A stretch of 64,000 nt of DNA from an uncultured Bdellovibrionales bacterium (GTDB taxonomy: Bacteria; Patescibacteriota; Minisyncoccia; Moranbacterales; UBA1568): NCBI GenBank assembly GCA_964384235.1, contig CAYLJX010000001.1, forward strand, positions 241,709 through 305,708. The letters are read 5' to 3'. The notes under the pieces were generated by a model, which was not told the origin of the DNA, did no database searches, and worked only from the letters and a program-made list of their open reading frames with translations. The translations under genes and the position numbers were made by a program. This document shows positions 37,864 to 64,000 of this stretch, piece by piece; within the stretch, counting starts at the first letter, position 1; the number at the start of each line of letters is the position of its first letter.

Positions 37864-38703
37864 TTATTTGGTGTTCGGCAAAGGTTTGCCGAAATACTTG
37901 AAAAAATATTTTATGGCGCTCTCGATATGGTACCATGTCAGCCGGTTGAAGAGGAGCGAACCGAGGAATCCGCCCCGGGCGCTGCCCTTAGCATGATAGT
38001 GGTAGACCTCCGCTTCCGGGTAGTACGTGACCTTGAGCCCGTTCTCCCAGAACCGCCGGCACCAATCGACATCTTCCATGTACATGAAGAACCGCCGGTC
38101 CATCTCCCCGATACGGAGCGCGTTCTCCCGCGAGACGAGCATCGCCGATCCGATCACCCAGTCGACGTCTCTGACCGTCTCGTGGTCATAGTCCTCCATG
38201 GTGAACCAGGCGAGGTGTCTTTTCCCGAAGGGAAGCTTCCCCAGCCAGGTACGTCGATAGAGAATGGTCTGCGGTCGATAGAAACGGTAACAGCTCTGCT
38301 GGAGCGTCCCGTTGAAATTCTTCTGCTTGGGCGCGAGGATGCCGATCTCCGGATGTGTCTGGAGATACCCGAGAAGCTTCGGGACGGTTCCTTGCATCAG
38401 GACGATATCGCTGTTGATGAGAAAGACATATCGCCCATGAGCTTCCTGGATGGAAACATTGACGAGCGTCTTGAACCCGACGTTTTCCTGGAAGGGAAAG
38501 AACCGCACCTGCGGAAATTCCTCCCGCATGAGCATGGCGGTATCCTCCTCGGTGGCGCTGTCGGTCACGATCACCTCGTAGTCGATGCCGGTTCCCGCCA
38601 TCTCCTTGGCGATGGACGAGAGGCACAGGCGGAGCAGTTCCGGACTGCGGTAGCCGTTGACAGCGATCGTGAGCTCTTTCGTTTCCGTACGAGCGGTATT
38701 CAT
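37864..38703 (-). CDS. Glycosyltransferase family 2
   Basis: 279 aa with GT-A fold motifs (DSATEED, DxD-like INSD, and the ED motif). Confidence 0.75.
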   Translation of the reverse strand: MNTARTETKELTIAVNGYRSPELLRLCLSSIAKEMAGTGIDYEVIVTDSATEEDTAMLMREEFPQVRFFPFQENVGFKTLVNVSIQEAHGRYVFLINSDIVLMQGTVPKLLGYLQTHPEIGILAPKQKNFNGTLQQSCYRFYRPQTILYRRTWLGKLPFGKRHLAWFTMEDYDHETVRDVDWVIGSAMLVSRENALRIGEMDRRFFMYMEDVDWCRRFWENGLKVTYYPEAEVYHYHAKGSARGGFLGSLLFNRLTWYHIESAIKYFFKYFGKPLPNTK

Positions 38704-38715
38704 CCCCGTTTCAGG

Positions 38716-39984
38716 CTATTTCAACGAGTTCTGAAACAGCTCGCGTATCTTGTCGTAGTTGTCGCCTCGCGGCAGGAGGATGTATCCGGCATTGCCGGTC
38801 TCCGTCGGGGCGTAGAGGAGTCCCTCCTCGGAGTTCTCGAGGACCTTCTGGTTCGGATTGACGTCGCCGATCTTCTGGTAAAGCGTGAAGAGGCGCTTCA
38901 TCTCCCAGGCTTCCATGTTGGTCGAGACGTTGTTGCCGAGACTGTCGAGCATGGCGTTCACCTTGGAGAAATCCGTGAGCGTTCCGGCGGAGAGCGCCTT
39001 CTTCTTGATCTCCTGGATCACCTGCTGCTGACGCTTGGCGCGCTCAAAGTCGTTGGAGGTATAGCGGGCGCGGGCATAGCAGAGGGCGGTCTTGCCGTCG
39101 AGCTGACTGTCACCGGCCGGCAGGCTGAAGTTGCCACCGCATTCGGAGTTCTTGTTGTAGCAGAGGGGATACTGGGCCATCACCTTGTACACGCGGGTCA
39201 AATCTCTCGGCTTGTTCTGGCAGAGCGGATACGGATCGTACTTCGGCGCGTAGAGGATGCTCGAGCGTGGCTTCTGACTGAACTTGCACTCATACATCTG
39301 CTGACCCTTCTCGTTCTTCATTGGATCGGTGAAGACAAGCGTGTCGCAGACGTGCGGCTCATGGAACTGCTGGGACTCGTTGAACGGCTCCGTCAGGCTG
39401 ACCGTCACCCCGCCCATGGCGTCCACCAGGTCGACGAACCCCTTGAAGTTGATCGTCACCGCGTACGGGATATCGAGACCGGTCACCTCGCCGACGATCG
39501 TTCGCATGTCTTCGATGCCGCCCTTGTGGTATTCGCGTTCCTCACCGAGGGCATAGACGGCGTTGATCTTGCGCTGTTCGTCGCGGCCCGGCACCTTGAC
39601 GTAGAGGTCGCGGGGAATGGAAATGAGAGAAGCCTTGCTTGCGTCCCCTTCGCCGTTCGATGGATGGATGGAGAGCACCATGATGGTGTCGGCCAGGAGT
39701 CCCCCGCCTTCGACACCCTCACCGCGCATTCCGAGAAGGAGGATATTGATACGGCCTTCTTCCTCACCCTTCACCTTCTGATCCACGCCCGGAAGCGATT
39801 TCACGAGGCTCTTGAAGATGTTGGCATTGCCGCCGGAAACCTTGTCGAGGATGAATCCCGTCTTCCAGATGAACGCTCCTGCCACGATGAGCAGGACCAC
39901 GCCGACAATCAGGGCGATTTTCCAGTAACGCTTTTTCTTGGGAACGTTTCCGGGTTCCGAGGATTGAAATTGGTTCAACGCCAT
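38716..39984 (-). CDS. LytR-CpsA-Psr (LCP) family protein
   Basis: N-terminal TM helix then the LCP domain (RINILLLGMRGEG...ADTIMVLSI...ISIPRDLYV). Confidence 0.75.
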   Translation of the reverse strand: MALNQFQSSEPGNVPKKKRYWKIALIVGVVLLIVAGAFIWKTGFILDKVSGGNANIFKSLVKSLPGVDQKVKGEEEGRINILLLGMRGEGVEGGGLLADTIMVLSIHPSNGEGDASKASLISIPRDLYVKVPGRDEQRKINAVYALGEEREYHKGGIEDMRTIVGEVTGLDIPYAVTINFKGFVDLVDAMGGVTVSLTEPFNESQQFHEPHVCDTLVFTDPMKNEKGQQMYECKFSQKPRSSILYAPKYDPYPLCQNKPRDLTRVYKVMAQYPLCYNKNSECGGNFSLPAGDSQLDGKTALCYARARYTSNDFERAKRQQQVIQEIKKKALSAGTLTDFSKVNAMLDSLGNNVSTNMEAWEMKRLFTLYQKIGDVNPNQKVLENSEEGLLYAPTETGNAGYILLPRGDNYDKIRELFQNSLK

Positions 39985-40020
39985 AACGAAAAACGCAAAA
40001 AAAATTACAACGAGACTCTT

Positions 40021-41166
40021 TCAGGAGAGCTGTTCGAAATGCGATAGAAGAAGCTCGGCACTCTTGTCCCAGGAGAAGGCTTGGAGGCGCGATTTCCCGC
40101 GCGTCAGACACATCTTCCTCGCTTCCTCATCAGTGCACACACTATACAATATATTTTCACAAGCGACAAGGTTCTTCGGATCGAAGTACAGCGCCGCATC
40201 CTCTCCCGTCTCCCGCAGGCTCGGGATATCCGATGCCGCCACCGGCACCCCGACCGCAAAAGCCTCCAGAAGCGGAATCCCGAATCCCTCGTACAGACTG
40301 GGGAACACGAACCCCCTGGAGAGCTTCATGAGCACGGCCAAGTCCTTCTGATCGACAAACCCAGGAAAGATGACGTCTTCCCTGATTTGAGTACGATCGA
40401 TCACGTCGTCGAGACGCGTATCGGCGTGGTGTCCCTGACGGTTGCCGACGAGCACGAGCTTCATCCCGGGCACGCGTTCCTTGAGACGCGCGAAAGCCTC
40501 GATCAAAAACGGGATGTTCTTGCGCGGCTGAAGCGTACCGACGGAGAGAAGAAACTCTTTGGGAAGCGAATACTTCTCACGGACCATGGCGTTTCTTTCC
40601 GTATCATCACTTTCCACGACGAAATCTTCTCCCAGGGCATTAGGCACGACCGCGATCTTCTCCGGATCAGTCCCGTAATACTTCACGATCTCGTCCTTGG
40701 TGAACCGTGACGGCGCGATGACAAGCGCTGCCCGACGAAGCGAGGGCGGGATGAGGAGATCAAGGAAAAATCTGTCCTTCCGGCCGATGAGCTCCGGATA
40801 CGCGGCAAAAGACACATCGTGGATATGTGTCGCGACTTTGGTTCGTCTCGGGACAAAGAATGGCAGTATGTACTGCGTGTGAAAAACATCGACATGGTGA
40901 CGGAACAGAAACCACGGCAGCGTCACGAAGTTCCACACGAAACGGTTGCGCCCGCGAAGCGACACGATCTCCACGTTTTCCTGTCCGACACAACCGAGCG
41001 TACCGTAGAGTGCGGCGACCTTTTCCGGCTCCCGTTCGTTAGTCATGAGGAGGTAGCGGTTCTTCTTGTCGAGCCGCAGGAGCGCCTTGGTCAGGTTGAA
41101 CACCACCGCCTCATCGCCGGTGCGCTTTTTGCCAAGCAGTCTGATGTCGATCGCAAAGGTTTTCAT
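40021..41166 (-). CDS. Glycosyltransferase family 1 (GT4-type)
   Basis: C-terminal EGFGIPLLEAFAVGVPV motif and the RKN motif. 381 aa. Confidence 0.8.
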   Translation of the reverse strand: MKTFAIDIRLLGKKRTGDEAVVFNLTKALLRLDKKNRYLLMTNEREPEKVAALYGTLGCVGQENVEIVSLRGRNRFVWNFVTLPWFLFRHHVDVFHTQYILPFFVPRRTKVATHIHDVSFAAYPELIGRKDRFFLDLLIPPSLRRAALVIAPSRFTKDEIVKYYGTDPEKIAVVPNALGEDFVVESDDTERNAMVREKYSLPKEFLLSVGTLQPRKNIPFLIEAFARLKERVPGMKLVLVGNRQGHHADTRLDDVIDRTQIREDVIFPGFVDQKDLAVLMKLSRGFVFPSLYEGFGIPLLEAFAVGVPVAASDIPSLRETGEDAALYFDPKNLVACENILYSVCTDEEARKMCLTRGKSRLQAFSWDKSAELLLSHFEQLS

Positions 41167-42752
41167 GACGGATTTCTATCATTTTCCATCATCAACGTTC
41201 CCAAAGCAAGAAACAGGAAAAAGAATCCCAGAAGGATACCGGAGTTGAACATGTTGAACACCGTGATGCCTGCCCAGACGGAAGCGACGAAAAGAAAGAG
41301 CGGCCGCATGTTTTCCTCTCCGCGAAACCATCCGTACACCGCCGCCGCGATCACCGAGAACCAGAAAACGACAAACGCGACCAGTCCGATGAGTCCGCTC
41401 CCGAGCCAAATCTCCAAGAACATATTGCTCGCGTTGAGTCCCGCACCGCGCTCATCAGAACCAAGGAAAGCCGCCGCGCTCCCCCATCCGATACCCAGGA
41501 GAGGGTGTTCCCGTATCAGGCCCCAGACTTTTCCATAGATTTCCTTGCGGATCGAGACGTTGGGGTCGTCACGGACGATTTCCTTCACGAAGTGCCCGGC
41601 AACTTTCTCCGCCTCGATATCCTCCAGATCGATGTGTCGGCAACCGAAAGCGGCAAGCTCCGAGACGTCACCGATCTTTTCCGGGAGCGCGACATCCTGC
41701 CCGCACGAGACCGTGATTCTCTGCAGTCCTGACCCGACACTCTGCACGCGGTTCCCAAGTTGGAACGACGTGAGGTGCAGACCCCATACCAACCCGAGTG
41801 CGATGACAAACGAAACAGCGACCGTCCCGACAAACACCATTCCCTCCCTGATCCGCCGCGAGAGGAGAAGTAATCCAGCAAACGTTACGGCACCGATGAC
41901 CGCCCCCAGCCACGCGCTCCTCGCCACGGTGATGATGAGAACGACAAACGAGAGGATAAGCATGACAGCCATGAGCCATGCCTTCGCATCCCGCATTTTC
42001 CGCATGATACATGATACATGATACATGATACTTCCCTGTTCTTTGGAGAAGAACGTCTGATACGCCAAAACATACATCACACCCAAGACTACGATAACGA
42101 AAAGTCCCAGCCAATCCGCCTCGCTGAACGTGGCGTTCGGCCGTCCGGCCATCACCTGAAAGCTTTCCTGCCCCGCGAGGAACCGCACATTCTGCCACAG
42201 GGCATAGCCAAAAACGACGAGCGAAGAACCGAGAAAAAACGGCAGCACCTGCCTGACATCCTCATACGATCGCAGATAGAGACGGGAGAGGAGATAGATC
42301 AGTCCGAACGACGAAAGTACCAGCGCCTGCTTGAACGCGAGCGCCAGGGACGGAGCGTTGAGACTCGCGAAGAACGCCCCGATCGGCACGAACGCGAGAC
42401 AAAAATCGAACCAGCGGAGACGAAGCGGCGCAAGCGACAGTCTCCCCATGACCAGGCGCACCGCGAGAGCGAGCGAGAGGAGCACGGCGATCCACTGATA
42501 CGGCCGAAGCATCATCCCGAAACCTTCCGGAAGGAGATTGACCGTCTCATAAGGAAGCATCCCGATGAGAAAGAGAAATACCCACCCCGGCCGATAGAGA
42601 GCAAAAAGAAAAGCAACGAATGAAAAGAAAAGAAAATTGACCGGATCAAGCGGCACCACACCAGTGTTTGCGAGCACGATCAACACGACGCCAAGGAAGA
42701 TATTCCCCAGGACAAGCATCAGTTTGTTCTGACTCCACCCGAAAAAATTCAT
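41163..42752 (-). CDS. O-antigen ligase/polymerase-like membrane protein (Wzy_C domain)
   Basis: About 12 TM helices and a periplasmic loop with the Wzy_C pattern (AGLNASNMFLEIWLGSGLIGL). Start overlaps the upstream GT4 stop (ATGA). Contains an in-frame (ATGATAC)x4 tract. Confidence 0.65.
   Translation of the reverse strand: MNFFGWSQNKLMLVLGNIFLGVVLIVLANTGVVPLDPVNFLFFSFVAFLFALYRPGWVFLFLIGMLPYETVNLLPEGFGMMLRPYQWIAVLLSLALAVRLVMGRLSLAPLRLRWFDFCLAFVPIGAFFASLNAPSLALAFKQALVLSSFGLIYLLSRLYLRSYEDVRQVLPFFLGSSLVVFGYALWQNVRFLAGQESFQVMAGRPNATFSEADWLGLFVIVVLGVMYVLAYQTFFSKEQGSIMYHVSCIMRKMRDAKAWLMAVMLILSFVVLIITVARSAWLGAVIGAVTFAGLLLLSRRIREGMVFVGTVAVSFVIALGLVWGLHLTSFQLGNRVQSVGSGLQRITVSCGQDVALPEKIGDVSELAAFGCRHIDLEDIEAEKVAGHFVKEIVRDDPNVSIRKEIYGKVWGLIREHPLLGIGWGSAAAFLGSDERGAGLNASNMFLEIWLGSGLIGLVAFVVFWFSVIAAAVYGWFRGEENMRPLFLFVASVWAGITVFNMFNSGILLGFFFLFLALGTLMMENDRNPS
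42004..42031 (-). repeat. Perfect (ATGATAC)x4 heptamer tract inside the Wzy-like CDS
   Basis: Encodes the peptide ...IMYHVSCIM.... The 28-nt tract sits in frame in an otherwise intact ORF. Changing the copy number by one unit would shift the frame. Confidence 0.7.
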
Positions 42753-43978
42753 ATCGTCATTTCCGAAAAAATCTTCTCCACGAACTTGTCCCAACTGAAT
42801 TGTACAATCTGGGCATGAGATCGGGCAACGAGCCTCTCCCGGAGTGCTTCATCACCGAGCAACCGCTCCATCCCCATGACGATCGAATCAGTATCGTGAG
42901 GATCGCAGTACTGTACCGCTTCACCCCCCACTTCCGGAAGTGATGAATTGTTCGAAGCAAGTACCGGCGTTCCCTTACACATCGCCTCCAAGACCGGCAG
43001 ACCGAACCCCTCGTAAAGCGACGGATAGACAAAGAACACCGCGCCGCGATACAGCGCCAGCAGATCTTCTTCCGGGACGAACCCCAGAAGCTTCACTTTT
43101 TCTTCCAATCCTAATTCCTTCACCAACCCCTCTACATCAGTCGCCAACTTATTTTCTTTCGAAAAAATTTTTCCAGAAATAACAAGAGGTGGGATATCGG
43201 CATTTTTTTGTATCTTGTATCTTGTATCTTGTATCTTTGCTTGAAGCATTGCATATGCTTCAAGCAGTGTCTTGGCATTCTTCCTCACTTCCAATCCCCC
43301 ACCATGATAAATGTAGCCCTGTTCGAGGCCGTACTTTTTCAAAACCGTGTCCACTGTCTCATCAGAGATAACTTCACGGAAACGCGGACTGACATCCGGA
43401 TACGCCACAACGATCCGTTCTTCCGAAAGACCGAGATGCTTCACAAGGTCTTGCTTCGTGGCTTCGGACACCGCGACGATCTGGTCTGCACTTCGGATGC
43501 CCCCCTCCACTGCCTTCCAGTGAAGCCTCTGTGACATCTTGCCTAAATATTCCGGAAACAATTTTGGGATGACATCATGTACGACCATTACATGTTTCAG
43601 CTTGTAGCTGGTAGCTGGTAGCTTGTAGCTTTCAAAAGAAGTTGAAGACTGGTAAAGAGAAAGGAAGACGTCACAGCCGTCGGCAGCGGCGCGCTTGGCG
43701 AGCTCGCGCTCCCAGAGCCACTTCCTCGGCACATCATCACGCTTCCACCACTTCGGGAGAAAACTCTTCACTTCAAAGTTCGCTGGAAGATCAATATTGA
43801 TGGGTTCTTCGGTATACAAAATGTATCTTGTATCTTGTATTTTGTATTTTGTATTCCCTTGATACGTAATACCGGATACATGATACTCGGTTAACTTTTG
43901 TAAAAAGTTAGCCGTTACTTGCCCGATACCGGTTCCGGGCTTTCTCAAAAATGACGCGTTGATACCTATTTTTTTCAT
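42749..43978 (-). CDS. Glycosyltransferase family 1 (GT4-type) carrying three in-frame heptamer-repeat insertions
   Basis: N-terminus MKKIGINASFLRKPGTGIGQVTANF and C-terminus EGFGLPVLEAMCKGTPV. Repeat-encoded segments are YHVSGITYQGNTKYKIQDTRYILY, YKLPATSYKLK and KIQDTRYKIQ. Confidence 0.75.
   Translation of the reverse strand: MKKIGINASFLRKPGTGIGQVTANFLQKLTEYHVSGITYQGNTKYKIQDTRYILYTEEPINIDLPANFEVKSFLPKWWKRDDVPRKWLWERELAKRAAADGCDVFLSLYQSSTSFESYKLPATSYKLKHVMVVHDVIPKLFPEYLGKMSQRLHWKAVEGGIRSADQIVAVSEATKQDLVKHLGLSEERIVVAYPDVSPRFREVISDETVDTVLKKYGLEQGYIYHGGGLEVRKNAKTLLEAYAMLQAKIQDTRYKIQKNADIPPLVISGKIFSKENKLATDVEGLVKELGLEEKVKLLGFVPEEDLLALYRGAVFFVYPSLYEGFGLPVLEAMCKGTPVLASNNSSLPEVGGEAVQYCDPHDTDSIVMGMERLLGDEALRERLVARSHAQIVQFSWDKFVEKIFSEMTI
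43209..43236 (-). repeat. (TGTATCT)x4 tract inside the GT4 CDS
   Basis: Four perfect tandem heptamers that encode KIQDTRYKIQ. Confidence 0.7.
43603..43630 (-). repeat. (KGTAGCT)x4 tract inside the GT4 CDS
   Basis: tgtagct ggtagct ggtagct tgtagct, encoding YKLPATSYKL. Confidence 0.65.
43822..43856 (-). repeat. (TGTATYT)x5 tract inside the GT4 CDS, near the N-terminus
   Basis: tgtatct tgtatct tgtattt tgtattt tgtattc, followed by gatacgtaataccggatacatgatac. Confidence 0.65.
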
Positions 43979-44004
43979 TCTTCTATTGTATCAAGGAAAA
44001 GAAA

Positions 44005-44046
44005 AGTTGAGAAAAGAAAAGCGCCCCCAAGGAAACCTCAGGGGCG
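44005..44046 (-). terminator. Intrinsic terminator ending the minus-strand transcript at 44.05-44.73 kb
   Basis: Minus strand hairpin gcgcccc-13 nt loop-ggggcgc followed by ttttcttttctc. Confidence 0.55.
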
Positions 44047-44413
44047 CGGTGTGTCTACGATGTAGGCGGGCGGACGATCGTCACCGATCAGTCGTGTCGG
44101 CCGGTACACAGATCTCAGCCGTGTAGTACCGACACCGTCGATGGTCGCGATCGTCGAGGGGTTGCGATGTTTCCATGCTTCCTCCTCGGTTGTGCGCGAT
44201 AGGCGGATGGCGCGGCGCTTCCCGACGTTGGGAGGGGCCGATGCCACTGGAGAAGTGCTCCCGGTGGCCTACGCGCGATTCGATGATACTACTTCTCTGC
44301 CGAGACGACCTCGGGGTCCAAAGGACAGGTGGTGAGCTCCAGTCAGCCTTTAGGCAAACTTCCGGAAACCGGACGCACACAGGCGAGACGTTCGCTCCCT
44401 TCCGACAGCAAAG
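44047..44413 (-). ncRNA. Candidate structured RNA (~360 nt), or structured 3' UTR of the 106-aa gene; family unassigned
   Basis: GC-rich (~65%) with no plausible ORF in any frame. Dense in stem-loops such as cttccgac..gtcggaag and gtgtcgg..ccgacac. Bounded by its own terminator and preceded by a strong promoter at 44766-44793. Not tmRNA, RNase P or SRP RNA by motif inspection. Confidence 0.3.
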
Positions 44414-44734: not shown

Positions 44735-44765
44735 CGGAGCTTCCTCCAGAAGGAACTTGCCCTAC

Positions 44766-44793
44766 AGTATACCGCCCGGGAAAATATTTGCAA
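44766..44793 (-). promoter_or_regulatory. Candidate sigma70 promoter (TTGCAA-16-TATACT)
   Basis: Minus strand reads ttgcaaatattttcccgggcggtatact. It drives the 106-aa ORF and the downstream structured region. Confidence 0.5.
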
Positions 44794-56315: not shown

Positions 56316-58444
56316 AGGGTCTCGTCGGTATCAGGTTCGGCCGGTTCTTCCTCAGCTTTCTTGGCATCACGCTTGGCGGCCTCCTGCCGGTAGTATTTTT
56401 CCTCCGCAGCTACGGGATCGTTTTTATAGATCTTCATGAAGTTCTTGGTCCGGCCGTCGATCACGTACTGCCACTCGGTGCCGACCTTCTCATACGGGAA
56501 CTTCGGATTGAGCGATCCGCCGTAGGACTGGAAGATATAGTCTACCTTGTACTTGGTCACGTCGACCTTGGTCTTGTGGATACACTTCCCCACGAAGAAC
56601 TCGCAGACGCCGTGCGTGTCCGTCCAGAGCGTGAGCTCCTTGGCATTCGGCTTCTGGTTGAGGTGTTCGGCGATCTCATACCCGCCGTAGCCCCAGGAAT
56701 GCATGATGAGGTATTTCTTTGGCAGGAAATCGTTCACATAGACGAAGAAGTGCGGGGAAGCCTGGATGAGGAACACGATTCCCGATCCGAGGATGACAAA
56801 GGAAAGAAACGTCGTCCCAATACGCGTGAAGACCGGATGTTTCGCGACATATCGTACGACCAGTCTGCCGATGAAAAAGCTGAAGACCGCCACCGCTATG
56901 ACACCCGACGCCACGAGAAACCAATACTGATCGGAAAAGTCCTTCCACCAGGTGATCTGCTTGCGGGTGAGCTGCTGATGCCAGAAGAACGCGGCGACCG
57001 AGACCGGCACGAACAGCACCGCGAGCGTCGAGAGGAGCGTGACCGCGCGACGTTTCCCGAGATCCGAGGCAGTGTCCTCTTTCCTGAGATAGGCAGAGAG
57101 ACCGATCGCGGCCAGCGTGAGCGCGACAGGGAACAGGATGATACTGTAGCGGGCCGTGACGAGGAGCCCCTGCTCGATGACCGCCAGGTAGAAGACCAGC
57201 ATGAACCCGGAGAGTGTCATCGCAAGCAGTCGCTCCCGAAACCCGACGAAGATACCGTAGACGAAGGAGGCGATCAGGAGGAACAAGGAGAGCGGCGTCA
57301 GCGAAAACGTGAGCGCGACGAACTCGACGGCGAAACGCGCCAGGAACGGATTTTCCGTCGTAAAGGTCTCCTTGGTCTTGGCATCGAACGGGATGTCGGA
57401 GAGATCGTAAAGGTTGTTCCCGAGCATCCAATTGAAGAGGACGAATACGACCGCGAGACAGAGGATCGCGTAGAGCGCCTGTTCGACAGGCCGTCTCAAC
57501 ACGACGAGCGCCCCCAGTACCCGTGTCAGCAGACGACCCTTAAAGAAAAACACGTCGGCAAGCAGGAGCATGTGACTCGCGACGACCGCGAGAAAGATCG
57601 GCCACATACCGCCGAAGCCGATGGTGCTCTCAAAGAAAAGCTCCGGGTCGGTGAAGACCGCCGGCATAAGGACCGCGAAGATCGTCCCGCCGCCGAGAAG
57701 TACCGTCCAATAGGACAGAACGTCCCGTTTCACGGCACGGGCGAGCATTCCTTCCTCCGCCGAGTACTCCTCGAAACGGTAGAAGTAATCCAAGAGCATC
57801 ATGACGAAAAAGAACGGGATGAAGATCACGGCGACGTACTTGCTCGCAAGCGCCAAACCGAAGAACAGCGTGGCAAGGACGACATACCGCCACTCCCGGA
57901 ATTTCAGGGTCGCGAAGAACGTACAAAGGGTCGCGAATCCGAACGTCCAGAAGAGCGTATCCGGATTGACGATCTGCGAGATGCCGAGAAGCACCGGCGA
58001 GAGGTACATGAGCATCGATGCCCAGGCCGCGACCCACTCGTCCGCGACGATCTTCCGGAGAATCCAGAAGAAGTAGAGGATCATCAGACCATTGAGCAGG
58101 AAGAGCGGGAGACGGAAACGGAAATTGATAGCCTTGGTCTTCTCGGGATCGAACATCTTGAAAGTGCCGTCGTGTGAGACGAGCTGCTCGCGGATGAGAT
58201 CCTGCGAAAAGGGAAGCGCGATACCGGAGACGTAGGCGAGCGTGATACCGGGCTTATCATTGATACGGGTGTCCTCCCAGTCGCGATCGGCTACGGCTTC
58301 CCAATAATCCTGGATGCGCTCCGTACCGTAATTGGGCAGCCAGAAATGCTCGTCCGCCGTGACAAAGTTCGAGAGCGTCGAAAGACCGAAGGAAAGATAC
58401 GTGAGAAACGCCAAAAAGACAAAAAAAATCGGCTTTTTCAGCAT
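56312..58444 (-). CDS. GT-C glycosyltransferase, ArnT/PMT-like paralog
   Basis: FVTADEHFWLPNYG DE motif. Same architecture and a similar C-terminal domain (HSWGYGGYE..., ...FFVGKC) as the neighbouring paralog. Start at MLKKPIFF, an internal Met of ORF 56312..58579. Confidence 0.65.
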   Translation of the reverse strand: MLKKPIFFVFLAFLTYLSFGLSTLSNFVTADEHFWLPNYGTERIQDYWEAVADRDWEDTRINDKPGITLAYVSGIALPFSQDLIREQLVSHDGTFKMFDPEKTKAINFRFRLPLFLLNGLMILYFFWILRKIVADEWVAAWASMLMYLSPVLLGISQIVNPDTLFWTFGFATLCTFFATLKFREWRYVVLATLFFGLALASKYVAVIFIPFFFVMMLLDYFYRFEEYSAEEGMLARAVKRDVLSYWTVLLGGGTIFAVLMPAVFTDPELFFESTIGFGGMWPIFLAVVASHMLLLADVFFFKGRLLTRVLGALVVLRRPVEQALYAILCLAVVFVLFNWMLGNNLYDLSDIPFDAKTKETFTTENPFLARFAVEFVALTFSLTPLSLFLLIASFVYGIFVGFRERLLAMTLSGFMLVFYLAVIEQGLLVTARYSIILFPVALTLAAIGLSAYLRKEDTASDLGKRRAVTLLSTLAVLFVPVSVAAFFWHQQLTRKQITWWKDFSDQYWFLVASGVIAVAVFSFFIGRLVVRYVAKHPVFTRIGTTFLSFVILGSGIVFLIQASPHFFVYVNDFLPKKYLIMHSWGYGGYEIAEHLNQKPNAKELTLWTDTHGVCEFFVGKCIHKTKVDVTKYKVDYIFQSYGGSLNPKFPYEKVGTEWQYVIDGRTKNFMKIYKNDPVAAEEKYYRQEAAKRDAKKAEEEPAEPDTDETL

Positions 58445-58520: not shown

Positions 58521-59951
58521 ATGGACCAACAACCCCAAAAAAAGAGTTTCCGTCTTGAACAGATCATCGGGTATCTCAAGAAGCTTGTTCAGACCGTCCC
58601 GAATGAGAAACAGCGGTTCCGGGCTGTCATTTTCTTCCTTACCGTGGCTGTCCTCCTGACCGCCCTGCACCTTTCCCGCTACCCCGTCGCGAGTTTCTTC
58701 GAGAAAAAGATTCTCTACTATTCCATCCTCTCTTCCGTGCAGCCGCCGACGTTTCCTGACCGGCGCTGCGTCATCTCCGACTACGGTGCCGTCCCCGGTG
58801 GCAAGACGAAAAATACCGAGGCGTTCAGGGCGGCCTTCGAGGATTGCTCCCGAAACGGCGGAGGACACGTCATCGTTCCCGAAGGGCTGTGGCTTACCGG
58901 AGCCATCCACTTCCGGGACAACATCGACTTCCATCTCGAGGAAGGCTCCGAGATCATCTGGAGCGACAAGCGAAGCGACTATCTCCCGGTCGTCTTCTCC
59001 CGTTTCCAGGGCATGGAATACTACAATTACTCTCCCCTTTTGTACGGAAACGGCGTCCGCAACGTGGCGATCACCGGCGAAGGGACGCTTAACGGCGACG
59101 GCGACAAGTGGCTCGATTGGGACGATGACGACAGAGGAAGGGATCGGCTGTACAAGATGGCCGAGCAGGGCGTACCCGTCGAGGAACGGGTGTTCGGCGA
59201 AAGGGACAACATGCGGCCGTCTTTCATCCAGTTCATCAACAGTCAGAACCTCCTCATAGAAAATATCCACATCAAGAACAGTCCTTTCTGGACTATCCAC
59301 CCCATCTATTCCGAGAACATCATTATCCGAAACATCACCCTCGAGAATGACGGACAGAACACGGACGGCGTCGATATCGATTCTTCCCGTAATGTCCTCA
59401 TCGAGAACTCGCACTTCTCCGCCGACGATGACAGCATCGCCATCAAGTCCGGCCTGGAAAAAGACGGCTGGCGCGTGAACAAGCCGTCGGAAAACATCCT
59501 CATCAGAAACTCCACCATGACCAAGGGGCACTCCGGCGTCGCCATCGGGAGTGAGATGTCAGGCGGCGTCCGGAACGTCATCATCACGGACAATACCTTC
59601 ATCGATACCGACGGCGGGTTCAAGATCAAGTCGCTCCCCGGACGGGGCGGAGTGGTGGAAAATATCTGGCTCTCCGATACCGAGATGTCGCTGGTTCCGA
59701 TCGGTATCTCGTTTGATATGGCCTATGCCTCCGGTATCCGGGGAAAGAACGACGACGAGCCGGTCTTTCGCAACATCCTCATTTCCGATATCCGGATGAG
59801 CGGCGTGACGAGGTACAGCCTCTTCGTCCACGCCCTCGGCAACGAGTCGGTCTCCGGTATCGATGTCACCAACCTCCGGTCGGACTACCCCAAGGCATCC
59901 ATCCGGAAAACCGACGGTGTCCGCATCACCCGCTCCACTATCGATCAGTGA
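58521..59951 (+). CDS. Glycoside hydrolase family 28-like beta-helix protein (polygalacturonase-like) with N-terminal membrane anchor
   Basis: NTDGVDIDSSRNVLIENSHFSADDDSIAIKSG and GHSGVAIGSE motifs match the GH28 active-site region. TM helix near residue 35. Confidence 0.7.
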   Translation: MDQQPQKKSFRLEQIIGYLKKLVQTVPNEKQRFRAVIFFLTVAVLLTALHLSRYPVASFFEKKILYYSILSSVQPPTFPDRRCVISDYGAVPGGKTKNTEAFRAAFEDCSRNGGGHVIVPEGLWLTGAIHFRDNIDFHLEEGSEIIWSDKRSDYLPVVFSRFQGMEYYNYSPLLYGNGVRNVAITGEGTLNGDGDKWLDWDDDDRGRDRLYKMAEQGVPVEERVFGERDNMRPSFIQFINSQNLLIENIHIKNSPFWTIHPIYSENIIIRNITLENDGQNTDGVDIDSSRNVLIENSHFSADDDSIAIKSGLEKDGWRVNKPSENILIRNSTMTKGHSGVAIGSEMSGGVRNVIITDNTFIDTDGGFKIKSLPGRGGVVENIWLSDTEMSLVPIGISFDMAYASGIRGKNDDEPVFRNILISDIRMSGVTRYSLFVHALGNESVSGIDVTNLRSDYPKASIRKTDGVRITRSTIDQ

Positions 59952-59965: not shown

Positions 59966-61525
59966 TTACCAGCGGTAGGCTTTGGCTGCCCCACGTATAG
60001 CGCTCACGTCCGTTTCCTGCATATTTTCCTTTATGTAAGAAAGCGTTTCCTTGGTCAGGAACTGCTGATCGTTGTCGAAGAGGACCACCCAGCCGCTCGG
60101 GTACTCGTTCATGAGCGCCTGCAACTCGGAGAGTCGGACATCATGATCGGCCCGCTCGCCGCCGAAGTCATACACCTTGAGACGGGCATCTTTGAGATAA
60201 AAATTCCTGAAGTTTCGCGTCACGATGAGGTCGTCTTTCGCAGCATGTTTCTTCACATAGGCGAGCGCCTTGCGGTAATCAGCGATCTCGCTGTTGCCGC
60301 GGTGATACGTCGTGTCCTCCTCGGTGAAAAAGTACCCATACTGGGGAAGAAACAGGAGCAACAAGAAAAGCGATCCGGCAAACGCGTGTTTGGAAAAATG
60401 TTTCAGGTTTTCCTCAAAGAACTTCCCCACGGCATAGATACCGACAGAAACGAGGATGATGAGGAATGATTGGATGAAGAACACGTACTGGATCCCCTGG
60501 GTGCGCTTCCAGAGGAACGCCGCCATGAGGAGCGGTACGAAAAAGGAGAGACTGAGCCACCAGGCTTCTTTTGATCGGCCTTCCCGAACGGCGAGGAAAC
60601 GTATTCCTGTGACGAGAAGAAGCACCCCGAGGAGCGGGTGGGAATAGTCACGAAACGCCCGGAGGAGATACTCCTGGTTGTCGATGAAAAATTTGAGCGA
60701 GGCGGTGAACAGTTCAATCATCTGCGGGGCCACGACCCACAGACCGACCGCTCCGAGGACGGAAAGACCCAAGAATACGACGTATTTGTTCGAGAATGAT
60801 CGGTGTTTCCGAAAAAGAACCGCCGCCATTACCAGCACGTATATGAAAAAGACCGGGGCCAGATTGACGGTCAGGAGCTGCAGATGGTAACTGAGCGCCG
60901 CAAGCGGAAGCAAAAGAAAAATCAGGAGCGGCTGCACGCCTGTCTGTTTGGAAAGCTTCCGAAGCCACGTCACGCTCCCCTCGTATTTCCCTTCCAAAAA
61001 CCGGAAGAGTGCCCAGGACAACGCCAGATACACCGGATAGAACATCGCGTACATGCGCAGTTTCCGGTCGAACTCGATGCCGGTGATACTCACCGCAAAG
61101 AGAAACGCGCCAATGAGAGCGATGATCCTGTTCCCCGTAAACGAGCGCGTGACGAAGTACATGAGGACGATCGCTATGAGACCCCACAATGCGCTCACGG
61201 AGCGCCCGACTGTTTCGTTCACACCGAAGTATTGGAAGAATGTGGCGACTTGCAACCGATAGAACCACGAACGTTCGTCCCGTGGCGGATAGACATCAAT
61301 CGCATCAGGAGCACCCTGATTGAAATCCCAGGCCTGCCAATGACTGGTCTGTGCGTATCCGTAGGAGGCATTGAGATCGATGAATTCGTCCGCAACGAAG
61401 GAGTTGCTGTCGAGATCCCAAAAACGCAAACCAGCCCCGACCAAGACGATCAGGACAAGCGTCACCGCCACCGTCAGTTTCTTCTTCTCCAACCAGAAAA
61501 GCACTTCTTTCAATCGCCGCATCAT
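59966..61525 (-). CDS. GT-C glycosyltransferase, ArnT/PMT-like third paralog
   Basis: RFWDLDSNSFVADEFIDLN DE motif, about 11 TM helices and a C-terminal soluble domain. Confidence 0.65.
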   Translation of the reverse strand: MMRRLKEVLFWLEKKKLTVAVTLVLIVLVGAGLRFWDLDSNSFVADEFIDLNASYGYAQTSHWQAWDFNQGAPDAIDVYPPRDERSWFYRLQVATFFQYFGVNETVGRSVSALWGLIAIVLMYFVTRSFTGNRIIALIGAFLFAVSITGIEFDRKLRMYAMFYPVYLALSWALFRFLEGKYEGSVTWLRKLSKQTGVQPLLIFLLLPLAALSYHLQLLTVNLAPVFFIYVLVMAAVLFRKHRSFSNKYVVFLGLSVLGAVGLWVVAPQMIELFTASLKFFIDNQEYLLRAFRDYSHPLLGVLLLVTGIRFLAVREGRSKEAWWLSLSFFVPLLMAAFLWKRTQGIQYVFFIQSFLIILVSVGIYAVGKFFEENLKHFSKHAFAGSLFLLLLFLPQYGYFFTEEDTTYHRGNSEIADYRKALAYVKKHAAKDDLIVTRNFRNFYLKDARLKVYDFGGERADHDVRLSELQALMNEYPSGWVVLFDNDQQFLTKETLSYIKENMQETDVSAIRGAAKAYRW

Positions 61526-61637: not shown

Positions 61638-62972
61638 ATGCTTGATCTCACCAAAAATCTCTCTCTGGAAGCCTCATCCAGAAAAGCATATCGGGTACTT
61701 CGCGTCGTCTTGTACGTCGTTCTGGTAGCCGCGGCGGTCGCGGTGACCATTCGTTTCATCTTTCCCGACCGTGACAAATACTTCGACTTCCGCATCTATT
61801 TCGGACCGAAAAACACCATCGCCGATCCCCGGTTCGCGACCACCGGAAAACCCGTAGAAAAAGGTGTCGTTCCCGAACAACAGACGATGTTCTTCAACGC
61901 TTCCGTTCTCGGTTCCTTTTCGACCATCCAGGTCGATATGGCCGTATCGGACCAGGTGACGCCCGCAGAAAACGGCACCCTTTCCGTCATCCGGGCCTAC
62001 CGGGCCTTTCTCTATCCCGACGGCGAACCGGTCACCTTTCGCGACGGTACACTCCTCACCGACGGCTCGCGTTTCCTCATCAAATCAGGCGATACGCTCC
62101 GACCCTTCGTGTCGTGGAATATCGCCGAGCAGATGGGCTTCAGACAGGAACAGTTCCTCTCCGTGGAACCCGCCGAACTGATCCGTGAAACCCCTGGTAC
62201 CCCCGTCACCGATCCCGGAGAAACACTTGAGGATATCGTATTCACGGTCCAAGGAAACTATTATCAGATCAGAGACAATCGATCGGTACCGTTCGTGAGC
62301 GAGCGCGCGTATTTCTCCCGATTCAAGGAAGGAAACGCTTTGGAAACAGACGAATCGATACTCTCTCGATTCCCCGTGAGTGATACGATGACCGGTTTCC
62401 TTGACGGCACACTTCTTTCCTACGGCGAGTCCGTCTACGTCGTCGAGGGAGAGACACTGCGACCCATCGACAGTGTCGATACCTTCCTCATCAAAGGCTA
62501 CCAGTGGCCCTCCGTCATCGCGGCCACCGGTGAAGAATTCGGCATGTACACGCGCGGCAAACTCTACACCCTCCAGCAGCCCCATCCAAACGGCACCCTG
62601 TTCCACCTCAAGGACAGCAACCGATATTACCTCGTTGAGAACGGAACAAAAAGAGAGGTTTCTGGGAACGATCTCTCAACTCAATACGCCGCCATCACAC
62701 CCGTCGATATCGAAACTTCACCTGAACCGGAAACCTGCACGCTCGTCCTTCGTCGTTTCCTTCTGTCAAAGTCGTATGGATGCGAGATTCCCCTGCAGAG
62801 ATTCGGAAACACGACGATCAACGAATATCAGTTCACCCTCACCCCGGACAAGCAGATGACACTCCAGGACCTCACGACGAATTTCGTGAGTCATGTGAAC
62901 CGCGAAAACTATCAATACTTCATGAACGAACTGAAAACCAAGCTCCTCACCCGCTACGGAACCACCCCCTAG
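61638..62972 (+). CDS. Hypothetical signal-anchored extracytoplasmic protein (444 aa)
   Basis: One N-terminal TM helix. No family recognised. Confidence 0.45.
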   Translation: MLDLTKNLSLEASSRKAYRVLRVVLYVVLVAAAVAVTIRFIFPDRDKYFDFRIYFGPKNTIADPRFATTGKPVEKGVVPEQQTMFFNASVLGSFSTIQVDMAVSDQVTPAENGTLSVIRAYRAFLYPDGEPVTFRDGTLLTDGSRFLIKSGDTLRPFVSWNIAEQMGFRQEQFLSVEPAELIRETPGTPVTDPGETLEDIVFTVQGNYYQIRDNRSVPFVSERAYFSRFKEGNALETDESILSRFPVSDTMTGFLDGTLLSYGESVYVVEGETLRPIDSVDTFLIKGYQWPSVIAATGEEFGMYTRGKLYTLQQPHPNGTLFHLKDSNRYYLVENGTKREVSGNDLSTQYAAITPVDIETSPEPETCTLVLRRFLLSKSYGCEIPLQRFGNTTINEYQFTLTPDKQMTLQDLTTNFVSHVNRENYQYFMNELKTKLLTRYGTTP

Positions 62973-62975
62973 CCT

Positions 62976-63395
62976 ATGCGATTCGACCGATCCATCATGA
63001 GACAATCCGCCGTCATCACCTACAAGCTCGTCGCCGAAGTCCTGTTTTGGGTGCTCGTGGCGACCGCCCTCTTCTTCGTCGCGGAGGCCGTTCTTCCCGG
63101 CTTCGTCTCCAGCCGGATCAACTTCTCGACGTTCTACCTCGTCCTCATCGCCACGATACTCCCGCTCATCCTCCTCCGACCGCTTCTTCCTGAGACAGAA
63201 AAAGAGCTTTCGGAAAACCAGACGTGGAGCAACAAAACGGTATTGATCGTAAGTCTCCTCGTCACGCTTCTCCTCGCAAACGACATGCACGGCCTCTCCC
63301 TCCTTGCAAGCACCGCCTCGCTCCTCTCCATATTCTTCGTCACGTTCTTTCTTCTTTCCTTCCTCTTTTCCAGGAACGAAAAAAGCACCTGGTAG
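62976..63395 (+). CDS. Hypothetical small membrane protein (139 aa)
   Basis: Three to four hydrophobic helices. Confidence 0.35.
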   Translation: MRFDRSIMRQSAVITYKLVAEVLFWVLVATALFFVAEAVLPGFVSSRINFSTFYLVLIATILPLILLRPLLPETEKELSENQTWSNKTVLIVSLLVTLLLANDMHGLSLLASTASLLSIFFVTFFLLSFLFSRNEKSTW

Positions 63396-63434
63396 GGCGC
63401 TCCATATAGTGAGACCAGAACACGGATACCTTTC

Positions 63435-64000
63435 CTAAACCGTGTCCTTCTCCTCGTAGTTCTCGATCTTTTCCAGTTCCGCTTCTTCGGCTTTGATGGC
63501 TTCGGCGGTTTGGAGGTCCTTTTTCTCGCGGAAGAAGAAGGGTGCGCCGAAAAGACTCGCGAACATCTGGAGGAACCGCCCAAGGAGCGCTACGGCGAGC
63601 GCCGCTTCCGGACTGATGCCGATAGTTGGGAAAAATGTCAGATAGGCCCACTCCTTGAGACCGATATTGTTGATCGAAACCGGGAGACTCGAGACGATGG
63701 AGAGGAGAAATACAACGGAAAGGAACGGTATGACCGGAACCGACTCATGGAACGCCGTGAAGAGCGTCAGGTTGAAGAGGCCGACACCGACGAAGGTAAA
63801 GAGGAGCGAGACCAGGAAACTCTCGAACACGAACCGCTTGTCCGTATAGCCGCTCATCTCGGAAAAGAAATTCTGCAGTTTCTCAGGAAACAAAGAAAAC
63901 AGTTTCTGGATCCACGCGCGATCGGAAAAGACCGTGAACAAAACATCGATGATCAGGAACGCCGCGAGACCGACAGCGAAGGGAACGAAAATCGGCTGCG
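63435..64000 (-). CDS. Polytopic membrane protein, partial (runs off the window end)
   Basis: The frame stays open and hydrophobic to position 64000 (..PIFVPFAVGLAAFLIIDV..). C-terminal charged tail. May be a flippase-like or MprF-like TM domain. Confidence 0.45.
   Translation of the reverse strand, partial: QPIFVPFAVGLAAFLIIDVLFTVFSDRAWIQKLFSLFPEKLQNFFSEMSGYTDKRFVFESFLVSLLFTFVGVGLFNLTLFTAFHESVPVIPFLSVVFLLSIVSSLPVSINNIGLKEWAYLTFFPTIGISPEAALAVALLGRFLQMFASLFGAPFFFREKKDLQTAEAIKAEEAELEKIENYEEKDTV

Follow-up and report, generated by a model that had tools for sequence, protein, structure and literature searches.

Two conserved modules and four predicted GT-C-fold enzymes in an envelope-glycan gene cluster of a Moranbacterales bacterium

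What kind of surface glycan is made by a bacterium that encodes, side by side, membrane glycosyltransferases of several families, polyprenyl-phosphate sugar synthases, candidate flippases, and a glycosidase, and to what is that glycan attached? The question is raised by the distal part of a 64,000-nucleotide stretch of DNA (hereafter, the window) from an uncultured bacterium recorded as Bdellovibrionales and placed by GTDB in the Moranbacterales (contig CAYLJX010000001.1 of assembly GCA_964384235.1, positions 241,709 to 305,708 of the forward strand). Its GTDB phylum, Patescibacteriota, belongs to the Candidate Phyla Radiation (CPR), whose members have genomes of approx. 1 Mb and are in many cases thought to be attached to other cells; to our knowledge, the chemistry of their envelopes is essentially unknown. 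A preliminary description, made from the letters of the window, listed the genes of a Wzy/Wzx-type pathway together with several enzymes of the GT-C glycosyltransferase fold. According to its proposal, polyprenyl phosphate receives sugars on the cytoplasmic side and donates them on the outside, possibly to proteins. When the open reading frames (ORFs) were listed and their products scanned against Pfam and NCBIfam, nearly every gene named in that description was borne out. The locus is an envelope-glycan gene cluster of at least 32 kb that consists of two conserved modules, A and B. Its product is probably a peptidoglycan-linked, uronic-acid-containing polymer that follows a Wzx/Wzy route and is extended outside the membrane from polyprenyl-phosphate sugars, so that the two modules would form one envelope-glycopolymer supercluster.

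Module A (36.5-54.3 kb) comprises an operon for GT4b, a Wzy-like protein, GT4a, a LytR-CpsA-Psr (LCP) protein, GT2a, and an S41 protease, which faces a second operon for a sugar dehydrogenase, the GtrB/DPMS-like GT2c, GT4c, the 634-amino-acid membrane protein TM13, a small protein, and Wzx (GT2 and GT4 are glycosyltransferase families 2 and 4). Module B, which starts at 54.4 kb, holds the genes for GT2d, a UDP-glucose (UDP-Glc) dehydrogenase, GT4d, an LPG_synthase_TM protein, and the GT-C proteins GTC3, GTC2, and GTC1, with a gene for a glycoside hydrolase of family 28 (GH28) inserted among them. The preliminary description had closed the locus at position 64000; the module in fact runs past the end of the window to approx. 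68.4 kb. This follows from Logan contig L165, which agrees with the window at every one of 11,025 nt and adds five further genes on the minus strand. In GT4b-Wzy-GT4a, GT4c-TM13, and GTC2-GTC1, the stop codon of one gene overlaps the start of the next by 1-4 nt, which couples these genes. The start codons of the S41, Wzy, and small-protein genes were taken from gene calls on identical public contigs.

The enzymes that give the locus its character are four GT-C proteins of three sequence-unrelated families, with GTC3 and TM13 assigned from predicted folds. GTC1 (54372-56315, minus strand) and GTC2 (56312-58444, minus strand) are the short and the long member of a pair. Both exceed the thresholds of the PMT_2 and PMT models: 41.1 and 37.4 bits for GTC1 and 39.7 and 32.3 bits for GTC2, against cut-offs of 26.1 and 22.7, respectively. 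They are 36% identical over the transmembrane (TM) core (E 1e-82), and the stop codon of GTC2 overlaps the start of GTC1 by 4 nt. Instead of the divergent soluble domains ascribed to them earlier, they possess one common C-terminal domain (33% identity) that is marked by a conserved WGYGGYE motif and a Cys pair and has no match in Pfam, NCBIfam, or the PDB sequences. Moreover, the PMT and PMT_2 matches span only approx. 120 residues of the TM core, a region common to the GT-C superfamily. Against solved PMT enzymes, neither the single sequences nor a 30-sequence profile gave a PDB match at E <= 1, and Pfam detected no MIR domain.

GTC3 (59966-61525, minus strand) had been counted as a third paralog; that description holds for GTC1 and GTC2 but not for GTC3, which is unrelated to them (BLASTP E 1.5; hhalign probability 3.9%). 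It reaches 20.6 bits with PMT_2, below the cut-off of 26.1, does not match PMT, and represents a third family, a sequence orphan. Since profile-profile comparison revealed no relation among the three GT-C families (probabilities 1-4%), the reading as three paralogs was rejected. The DE motifs attributed to the three proteins are present just after TM1: D34-E35 in GTC1 and GTC2, directly after the helix and invariant in 30 sequences, and D46-E47 in GTC3, as part of an invariant D46-E47-x-x-D50.

The fourth protein, TM13 (50582-52486, plus strand), was known only as one further protein with 13 TM helices. It is a membrane protein, but it is also predicted to adopt a GT-C fold itself. TM13 belongs to a DUF6541/DUF1616-like orphan family: its only Pfam match, DUF1616, scores 29.2 bits, below the cut-off of 31.6, and its homologs carry DUF6541 (PF20176). 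No relation to the GTC1/2 or GTC3 families was seen by sequence or profile-profile comparison. None of the three GT-C families gave a meaningful match to the PDB, either as single sequences or as 30-31-sequence profiles, and because GTC3 and TM13 have no solved relative by sequence, their assignment is based on predicted folds. AlphaFold (AF2) models built on 31-sequence alignments were confident both for GTC3 (pLDDT 88.5, pTM 0.86) and for TM13 (pLDDT 88.6, pTM 0.91). When these models were compared with the PDB by Foldseek (significance at E <= 1e-3), every significant neighbour was a GT-C enzyme: STT3, AglB, PglB, ArnT, DPY19, AftA, or ALG9, and AftD and Emb were also among the fold matches. 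In particular, GTC3 matched STT3/AglB (1e-7), PglB (4e-6), ArnT (5e-6), DPY19 (5e-5), and ALG9 (8e-5), with AftA not among the matches listed. TM13 matched STT3/AglB (7e-8 to 3e-6), AftA (3.5e-7), DPY19 (7.5e-6), and ArnT (6e-5), and its ALG9 match was not significant (1.7e-2). For both models, STT3/AglB rank first (E ~1e-7, TM ~0.5), with ArnT, DPY19, and AftA scoring nearby. Such a ranking of predicted folds cannot separate an enzyme of oligosaccharyltransferase (OST) type from one of ArnT type, as the scores lie within one to three orders of magnitude.

At the level of sequence, the likeness to ArnT disappears: no sequence or profile match to ArnT/GT83 was found for the GT-C proteins. The hidden Markov model (HMM) assignment that the preliminary description had proposed as a check was carried out and placed no GT-C protein in the STT3 or YfhO families. 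None of the four proteins has an STT3 hit in Pfam, WWDYG is absent from the conserved columns of TM13 and GTC3, no profile match to OST chains was obtained, and Pfam scans gave no match to the YfhO family. As STT3 and YfhO models do not match and WWDYG is missing, the objection foreseen there, that these proteins are members of unrelated families such as OSTs or YfhO, does not arise.

Most of the conserved polar residues of TM13 are located either in a large loop behind helix 4 or in the C-terminal domain, which also contains an invariant Cys pair. The invariant set consists of T130-D131-x-G-H134-H135 (TDLGHH), D173, G-E178-H179 (GEH), H299-H300 (HHLS), and D533-H534. An exhaustive HMM search returned 121 clusters at E <= 1e-30 and 1369 relatives at E <= 1e-3; the distant relatives bear no informative annotation, at best a sub-threshold DUF1616 match, and belong to the CPR where named. 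Likewise, homologs of GTC1, GTC3, and TM13, where named, come from Candidatus Moranbacteria/Moraniibacteriota, Parcubacteria, or Paceibacteria, all of the Patescibacteria group.

Are these enzymes accompanied by a source of lipid-linked sugars? Two GT2 proteins carry the features that define polyprenyl-phosphate glycose synthases of the GtrB/DPMS/ArnC type, namely a DxD motif and a C-terminal TM hairpin, and are predicted to supply lipid donors. GT2c (48476-49444, plus strand; GT2 2.6e-21) combines a GT-A domain that contains a DAD motif with C-terminal TM helices at residues 242-260 and 274-292. Its NCBIfam matches are AglJ (4e-34, 118 bits, full length), PpgS (2e-22), and ArnC (3e-13), and its PDB matches are Pyrococcus DPMS (3e-16), ArnC (1e-11), and GtrB (6e-5), in agreement with its earlier designation as a GtrB/ArnC-like membrane GT2. 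GT2d, encoded on the minus strand beyond the window, has the same architecture (DGD motif; TM 236-254 and 270-288) and also matches DPMS, ArnC, and GtrB; as an ArnC/PgfS/GtrB-like protein, it scores 177 bits with ArnC and 154 bits with Streptococcus mutans PgfS. Three candidate flippases are also encoded. The Wzx-type (MOP) flippase is encoded at 52880-54328 (plus strand; Polysacc_synt 63.4 bits against a cut-off of 28.2, 2.9e-17; Polysacc_synt_3). The LPG_synthase_TM or 'flippase-like domain' protein is encoded at 63435-64436 on the minus strand, and the window holds its C-terminal part to position 64000 (PF03706 8.6e-30; TIGR00374 79.7 bits, cut-off 43.2). The third candidate is an EamA/DMT protein described below. 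Two GT2 proteins with the diagnostic hairpin, candidate flippases, four GT-C-fold proteins (three with DE motifs), and a gene order conserved in many genomes fit, at the family level, the core idea of cytoplasmic loading of sugars onto polyprenyl phosphate, followed by their transfer through GT-C enzymes on the outside.

That gene order was followed in two sets of related loci. With the TM13 profile, relatives were found in 244 GTDB species genomes, of which the best 80, nearly all from Moraniibacteriota/Parcubacteria, were analysed with 10-kb flanks. ORFs of related loci were classed by phmmer against the proteins of the window, and counts refer to loci with enough flank. The recurrent order is [S41<] GT2a< LCP< GT4a< Wzy< GT4b< [EamA< GT2b<] UGDH> GT2c> GT4c> TM13> [small>] [GT4>] Wzx>, where UGDH is the sugar dehydrogenase and square brackets enclose optional genes; after Wzx come GTC3 (1-3 copies), GTC2 plus GTC1, and GH28 in varying combinations. 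A GT4 gene lies directly upstream of the TM13 homolog in 60/72 loci and a GtrB-like GT2 gene upstream of it in 61/67. The divergent Wzy operon is present in 37/51 TM13 loci and another GT-C family in 26/49. As judged from gene order, the conserved core is formed by TM13 rather than by the PMT-like pair. The spacing downstream of TM13 varies: many related genomes have approx. 3.5-4.4 kb between the TM13 homolog and Wzx. In the single locus examined (L013, 13833-15329), this gap contains a small ORF, an extra GT4, an RtcB RNA ligase, and a small kinase, which indicates that the operon tolerates insertions.

A second set, of 78 metagenome loci, was collected with the GTC1/2 profile. Here the commonest neighbourhood is GT2d> UGDH2> GT4d> LPG_synthase_TM> GTC2> GTC1 (> GTC1) > GTC3, UGDH2 being the UDP-Glc dehydrogenase of module B. 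Members of the GTC1/2 family stand in tandem, in 2-5 copies, in 58/78 loci. The long form comes first in 40/46 complete arrays, and GTC2 is followed by GTC1 33 times, with the reverse order seen once. So constant an order suggests that the pair arose by an early duplication and that each copy has kept a set role; by analogy with Pmt1-Pmt2 or EmbA-EmbB, GTC2 and GTC1 possibly form a heteromer.

Evidence on the fate of the glycan comes from the first operon of module A. The LCP protein (38716-39984, minus strand; LytR_cpsA_psr 1.6e-33) is a predicted glycopolymer-to-peptidoglycan ligase that scores 116.5 bits with the Pfam model (cut-off 24.6) and 94.8 bits with the NCBIfam LCP domain (cut-off 62.3) and resembles TagU (3e-35). 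A TM anchor at residues 21-39, preceded by a positively charged N-terminus, puts its domain outside the membrane. The Wzy_C-family protein (41163-42752, minus strand; 65 bits, cut-off 31.7), of polymerase or ligase type, has approx. 12 TM helices. The remaining enzymes of the operon, all encoded on the minus strand, are GT2a (37864-38703; Glycos_transf_2 1.3e-14, Glyco_tranf_2_3), a soluble GT2 with no TM helix, GT4a (40021-41166; Glycos_transf_1 4e-32, Glyco_transf_4), and GT4b (42749-43978; Glycos_transf_1 1.7e-27). In the facing operon, on the plus strand, GT4c (49494-50582; Glycos_transf_1 8e-32) is encoded between GT2c and TM13 in nearly all related genomes, and the sugar dehydrogenase UGDH1 (46748-48037) contains all three UDPG_MGDP_dh domains and scores 398.8 bits with TIGR03026 (cut-off 189.8). 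Family models therefore match every member of the Wzy/Wzx-type set named at the outset (GT2, LCP, three GT4 enzymes, Wzy_C protein, nucleoside-diphosphate-sugar dehydrogenase, Wzx). The presence of an LCP ligase and a Wzy_C protein alongside GT-C genes points to a peptidoglycan-linked glycopolymer.

Clues to the sugars come from the dehydrogenases and from GH28 (58521-59951, plus strand), an exo-alpha-galacturonidase-like hydrolase. The GH28 glycosidase reported earlier is confirmed both by the family model (Glyco_hydro_28 1.9e-34, 119.6 bits, cut-off 22.9) and by its catalytic motifs. It is similar to the BT4155-type alpha-D-galacturonidase (1.4e-99) and, over approx. 390 residues, to the exo-poly-alpha-galacturonosidase of Thermotoga (3JUR, 3e-93), with which the motifs NTDG, DDDS, GHSG, and FKIK (NTD / DD / G-H-G / R-I-K) are in register. 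A TM helix at residues 33-51 is preceded by positive charges, which indicates that the catalytic domain faces outward. The second dehydrogenase, UGDH2, lies beyond the window on the minus strand, together with GT4d, a four-helix-bundle gene, and GT2d, and is TuaD-like (558 bits). GH28 and two sugar 6-dehydrogenases point to an acidic, uronic-acid-containing surface glycan.

These gene families, folds, motifs, membrane anchors, and conserved gene order suggest a route whose lipid donors, sugar identities, order of steps, and acceptor would be as follows. In module A, GT2a, GT4a, GT4b, and GT4c, together with the UDP-HexNAc-type dehydrogenase, would build a uronic-acid-containing unit on a polyprenyl carrier in the cytoplasm. 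The unit would be flipped by Wzx and polymerised by the Wzy_C protein, and the polymer would be joined to peptidoglycan by LCP. In parallel, GT2c would make a polyprenyl-monophosphate sugar from which TM13 may lengthen the polymer or add branches on the outer face of the membrane. In module B, GT2d and the UDP-Glc dehydrogenase would supply a second lipid-linked sugar, plausibly a hexuronic acid, GT4d would act on some substrate, and the lipid intermediate would be flipped by the LPG_synthase_TM-type protein. For single-sugar lipids in general, the flippase might be Wzx, the LPG_synthase_TM-like protein, or possibly EamA. The long-short pair GTC2/GTC1 and GTC3 would then pass sugars to the surface glycan, and membrane-anchored GH28 may trim or remodel the product. 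The proposed link between a GH28 galacturonidase and the transfer of lipid-linked uronic acid is testable.

Several observations count against this proposal. Family scans of the mapped genes from 36.5 to 68.4 kb, including the 4.8-kb extension, detected no initiating phosphoglycosyltransferase, and no Wzz/PCP chain-length regulator was found among the same genes; nor was a GtrA-type or SMR flippase found in the family scans of the locus. UGDH1 is, by score, of the UDP-HexNAc rather than the UDP-Glc type, being closest to UDP-ManNAc/UDP-GlcNAc dehydrogenases (305 bits for the UDP-ManNAc type, with further scores of 240 and 236 bits) vs. approx. 180 (181) bits for UDP-Glc dehydrogenase. No UDP-glucuronic acid (UDP-GlcA) 4-epimerase was seen, which leaves the connection between the dehydrogenases and a hydrolase specific for galacturonic acid (GalA) incomplete. 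GH28 is encoded in a minority of related loci (6/82 and 7/78). TM13 carries no acidic motif right after TM1, and its TDLGHH/GEH loop after the fourth helix is atypical. Finally, the GT-C genes fit a protein or glycolipid acceptor equally well.

Protein acceptors are the subject of the first alternative, which the preliminary description had raised as a possible O-glycosylation system. In this scheme, GT2d and GT2c make polyprenyl-phosphate hexose, and GTC1/GTC2, with or without GTC3, transfer the hexose to Ser/Thr residues of secreted, pilin, or S-layer proteins, like actinobacterial Pmt/Ppm1 or streptococcal GtrB-PgtC2/Pgf. The score of GT2d with S. mutans PgfS, the PMT and PMT_2 matches of GTC1/2 above threshold, and their conserved DE motif agree with it, and streptococci apply such pairs of GT2 and GT-C enzymes to Ser/Thr-rich protein regions (PMC12041528). 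Furthermore, in one complete genome the trio GH28-GTC2-GTC1 stands apart from the rest of the cluster, away from the LCP/Wzy genes. However, the Pfam matches are confined to the short stretch of TM core mentioned above, there is no profile match to a solved PMT and no MIR domain, and no convincing Ser/Thr-rich candidate acceptor is encoded in the window. The usual neighbours of the pair (sugar dehydrogenase, GT4, lipid flippase-like protein, glycosidase) are better suited to building a glycan or glycolipid. With LCP and Wzy_C genes as the setting and no Ser/Thr-rich acceptor nearby, the suggestion found no specific support, and protein O-glycosylation appears rather unlikely.

A small chance is also given to a lipid acceptor. 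Module B might produce a membrane-anchored lipoglycan of the lipomannan/lipoarabinomannan (LM/LAM) type or a substitute for lipoteichoic acid: GT4d would glycosylate a membrane lipid, possibly with GlcA that derives from the UDP-Glc dehydrogenase, the LPG_synthase_TM protein would flip the glycolipid, and the tandem GT-C enzymes would elongate it from the polyprenyl-phosphate sugar made by GT2d. The set of GT2, GT4, and GT-C enzymes parallels mycobacterial Ppm1, PimA/B, and PimE/Mpt. Moreover, GT2d-UGDH2-GT4d-LPG_synthase_TM-GTC is a recurrent unit (LPG_synthase_TM in 17/42, GT4d in 18/42, and UGDH2 in 16/42 loci of at least 10 kb), PF03706/TIGR00374 is a domain of lipid-flippase type, and GT4c and GT4d weakly match glycolipid synthases (Mgs, IagA/BgsA, GlcNAc-PG synthase). 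These GT4 matches, however, are generic and do not tell lipid acceptors from polyprenyl-diphosphate ones, and module B is physically joined to the LCP/Wzy/Wzx module both here and in many other genomes.

A third alternative concerns GH28, which could be a nutritional hydrolase of pectin or galacturonides with no part in the glycan pathway. Its marked similarity to the catabolic exo-polygalacturonases of Thermotoga and Bacteroides and its presence in only some of the related loci speak for such a role. On the other hand, a GT-C gene is the nearest recognised neighbour of 14/15 GH28 genes, across divergent genomes and in differing arrangements; the enzyme is membrane-anchored, not secreted; and no genes for uronate catabolism or uptake are adjacent. 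A purely nutritional GH28 is thus unlikely.

Quite improbable in its entirety, though far-reaching, is a joint reading in which TM13 (DUF6541) founds a new, CPR-restricted glycosyltransferase family and serves as the main extracytoplasmic polymerase or as the en-bloc transferase of an oligosaccharide that is begun on polyprenyl monophosphate by the AglJ-like GT2 and extended by GT4, i.e., an archaeal-style pathway in bacteria. In the same reading, GTC2/GTC1 would be a heteromeric uronic-acid transferase, and the entire surface glycan would be turned on or off through slippage at the 7-nt repeats of GT4b and the Wzy-like gene. Very unlikely is its narrower relative, archaeal-style en-bloc transfer to a protein or wall acceptor, with GT2c starting the oligosaccharide, GT4c extending it, Wzx flipping it, and TM13 as a divergent OST or true polymerase: AglJ is the best NCBIfam match of GT2c, GT2c-GT4c-TM13 is the most invariant trio, STT3/AglB head the fold matches of TM13, its C-terminal domain is weakly like AglB (3vu0; probability 0.98, E 0.4), and its N-terminus weakly matches archaeal DUF1616, but TM13 lacks an STT3 Pfam match, WWDYG, and any sequence or profile match to an OST, its fold scores barely set OSTs apart from ArnT and AftA, all AglJ-type scores are far under the equivalog cut-off, and a separate Wzy_C polymerase candidate is already encoded.

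With a peptidoglycan-linked polymer as the probable product, the other genes of the cluster may now be considered. The S41 (CtpA-like) peptidase with a PDZ domain (36563-37858, minus strand; Peptidase_S41 1e-48) is the last gene of the LCP operon and occupies the same position in 7 related loci. Between the GT4b side of this operon and EamA/GT2b lie a terminator and a promoter. The EamA/DMT protein (44798-45676, minus strand; EamA 4.9e-17) is an accessory 10-TM transporter and a candidate flippase or sugar-nucleotide carrier; a weak match to TPT (sugar-phosphate/nucleotide-sugar transporter) raises the idea of sugar-nucleotide uptake, not lipid flipping. GT2b (45788-46564, minus strand; Glycos_transf_2 2.5e-19), also accessory and soluble, had been called DPM1-like. 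It is a generic GT2, but the DPM1 label is weak, its sole PDB match being DPMS 5mlz with E 0.008 over residues 2-126, the N-terminal half. The EamA-GT2b pair (44798-46564) is an accessory insertion found at the same spot in only 4-5 of the 80 related loci. A minus-strand stretch of approx. 780 nt (44015-44800), between the EamA stop codon and a strong terminator (44047-44021), is GC-rich and is predicted to fold much more stably than shuffled controls (z = -5.5). The unassigned interval 43979-44797 has no Pfam or Rfam match, no ORF hits, and no similar DNA in approx. 170 related loci; the stretch downstream of EamA could represent the remnant of a gene or a structured RNA peculiar to this lineage.

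Several proteins of the locus have no family match. One of them, small, extracytoplasmic, and with one TM helix, follows TM13 (52498-52869, plus strand) and is found downstream of TM13 homologs in at least 27/82 loci. X444 (61638-62972, plus strand), an extracytoplasmic protein with one TM helix and no Pfam or NCBIfam match, occurs beside GT-C arrays in a few loci. Both are seen adjacent to GT-C genes in other genomes, and a role as subunit, chain-length factor, or acceptor is conceivable. X139 (62976-63395, plus strand) is small and has 4-5 TM helices. An 81-amino-acid, Cys-rich ORF with one TM helix (48135-48380, plus strand), called as a gene on identical contigs, lies between UGDH1 and GT2c and has no family match either. 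It is flanked by two long hairpins at 48052-48119 and 48383-48459 (-30.8 and -24.7 kcal/mol; z -4.7 and -3.3) that are composed of tandem 8-nt units, TAACGGGT / AACCCGTT, containing GTTAAC. As a genome-wide motif, GTTAAC was rejected for lack of enrichment in the window (10 found vs. 12 expected). The four-helix-bundle gene of the GT2d-UGDH2-GT4d operon belongs to the '23S rRNA intervening sequence' family (TIGR02436, 117.6 bits; 12645-13019 on contig L165, corresponding to window coordinates 65620-65994, minus strand), and members of this family were also seen in three other related loci.

The Wzy-like gene and GT4b contain tracts of 7-nt x4-5 repeats. A perfect 7-nt x4 repeat is located at 42003-42031 in the Wzy-like gene, and three perfect or near-perfect tracts are located at 43208-43237, 43599-43631, and 43822-43855 in GT4b. 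Two independent assemblies of the same strain stop exactly at such tracts, at 42005 in the Wzy-like gene and at 43234 in GT4b, which is what heterogeneity in repeat number would produce. The tracts are currently in frame, and a change by one unit would shift the frame; they are therefore candidate phase-variation tracts, and their position in these two genes suggests phase variation of the glycan genes. Should such variation be confirmed, it would argue that CPR bacteria have surface glycans subject to phase variation. Other, less regular tracts (7-nt x4-7) are scattered over the window and start at 847, 2144, 3953, 14671, 23353, 32866, 35419, and 49468, and several lie immediately upstream of gene starts (35419-35467 before SecA and 49468-49494 before GT4c). 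The window upstream of 36.5 kb is occupied by housekeeping genes (SecA, CTP synthase, enolase, phosphoglycerate kinase, alanyl-tRNA synthetase, ScpAB, MraY). The only family-4 enzyme of the window, encoded in this region (18344-19471), was tried as the missing priming transferase and rejected as a true MraY (197.8 bits, cut-off 192.05).

The conservation of gene order across many species and the investment of at least 32 kb in one glycan locus suggest that the product is a central component of the envelope, one that probably governs contact with hosts and recognition by phages. The locus offers three enzyme families for study: the DUF6541-type GT-C (TM13), the GTC3 family, and the long-short PMT_2-like pair with its own C-terminal domain. 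The GTC3 and TM13 families, which have neither a curated family nor a solved relative, could found new glycosyltransferase families in CAZy. Searches of the literature for the function of DUF6541 and DUF1616 and for Moranbacteria glycosyltransferases returned nothing specific, and no paper describing the locus was found.

How, then, does the cluster compare with known systems? In three-component systems generally, a polyprenyl-phosphate sugar is made by a GT2 with a C-terminal TM hairpin, carried across by a flippase, and used as donor by a GT-C enzyme on the outside (PMC11127046). For the group A carbohydrate of Streptococcus pyogenes, these parts are played by GacI (GT2), GacJ (a small membrane protein), GacK (a Wzx-type flippase), and GacL (GT-C), with attachment by LCP (bioRxiv 10.1101/180810). 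The component types just listed, known from GtrA/B/C (Shigella, Salmonella), GacI/J/K/L, and CsbB-GtcA-YfhO (Bacillus, Listeria), are all represented in the cluster described here, the flippase by candidates. Unlike in those systems, a GT4 is included in each module, there are four GT-C enzymes of three families, none of the YfhO or GtrC type, and an LPG_synthase_TM-type protein takes the place expected for a flippase, with no GtrA. In addition, GH28 is linked to the GT-C genes, and the GT-C protein TM13 belongs to the core rather than to an accessory decoration. With the tua operon of Bacillus subtilis, the cluster shares Wzx (TuaB), GT4 (TuaC-like, 3.5e-20 and 5e-28), UDP-Glc dehydrogenase (TuaD-like), Wzy_C (TuaE type), GT2 (weakly TuaG-like), and LCP-dependent attachment to the wall. 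The likeness is nevertheless one of component types only: the scores are below the tua equivalog cut-offs (TuaD-like, 558 bits vs. 700; TuaC-like, 72-98 vs. 550; TuaG-like, 22-29 vs. 400), no TuaA or TuaF was found, and the tua operon has no GT-C enzymes, polyprenyl-phosphate-sugar synthase, or glycosidase.

The use of several GT-C families that draw on polyprenyl-phosphate sugars to build LCP-attached or lipid-anchored glycans recalls the arabinogalactan and LM/LAM of mycobacteria and corynebacteria (Ppm1, PpgS/Rv3779, PimA/B, PimE, Mpt, Emb, Aft). Those systems belong to a different phylum, however, their GT-C enzymes show no sequence-level relation to the ones described here, and the present cluster has no decaprenyl-phosphoribose genes. 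The combination of a sugar 6-dehydrogenase, an ArnC-like GT2d, and ArnT-like GT-C paralogs resembles ArnC/ArnT and Rhizobium RgtE/RgtA-D. The latter enzymes move GalA from a lipid carrier (dodecaprenyl-phosphate-GalA), which would fit a GH28 galacturonidase here. In both the Arn and the Rgt systems, the acceptor is lipid A or the lipopolysaccharide core; the present cluster instead has wall genes of the monoderm type (LCP) and no ArnA/B/D or ArnE/F. An AglJ-like GT2, a sugar dehydrogenase, a Wzx-like flippase, a PMT_2-like GT-C, and an STT3-fold GT-C have counterparts in the Agl N-glycosylation pathway of Haloferax volcanii (AglJ, AglM, AglR, AglS, AglB), but STT3 signature motifs are missing here, all scores are under the equivalog cut-offs, and the setting is bacterial, with LCP and Wzy_C. 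The PMT/PMT_2 matches, the DE motif in loop 1, a long-short pair that recalls Pmt1-Pmt2 heterodimers, and the PgfS-like GT2d connect the cluster with PMT/GT39 enzymes and streptococcal GtrB-PgtC2/Pgf (PMC12041528). Unlike PMT/GT39 enzymes, GTC1 and GTC2 have no MIR domain, match only in the TM core, and possess a Cys-containing C-terminal domain without known match. The type of system is already known and its member enzymes are new; the architecture is a variant of a known scheme that has been conserved across a CPR lineage.

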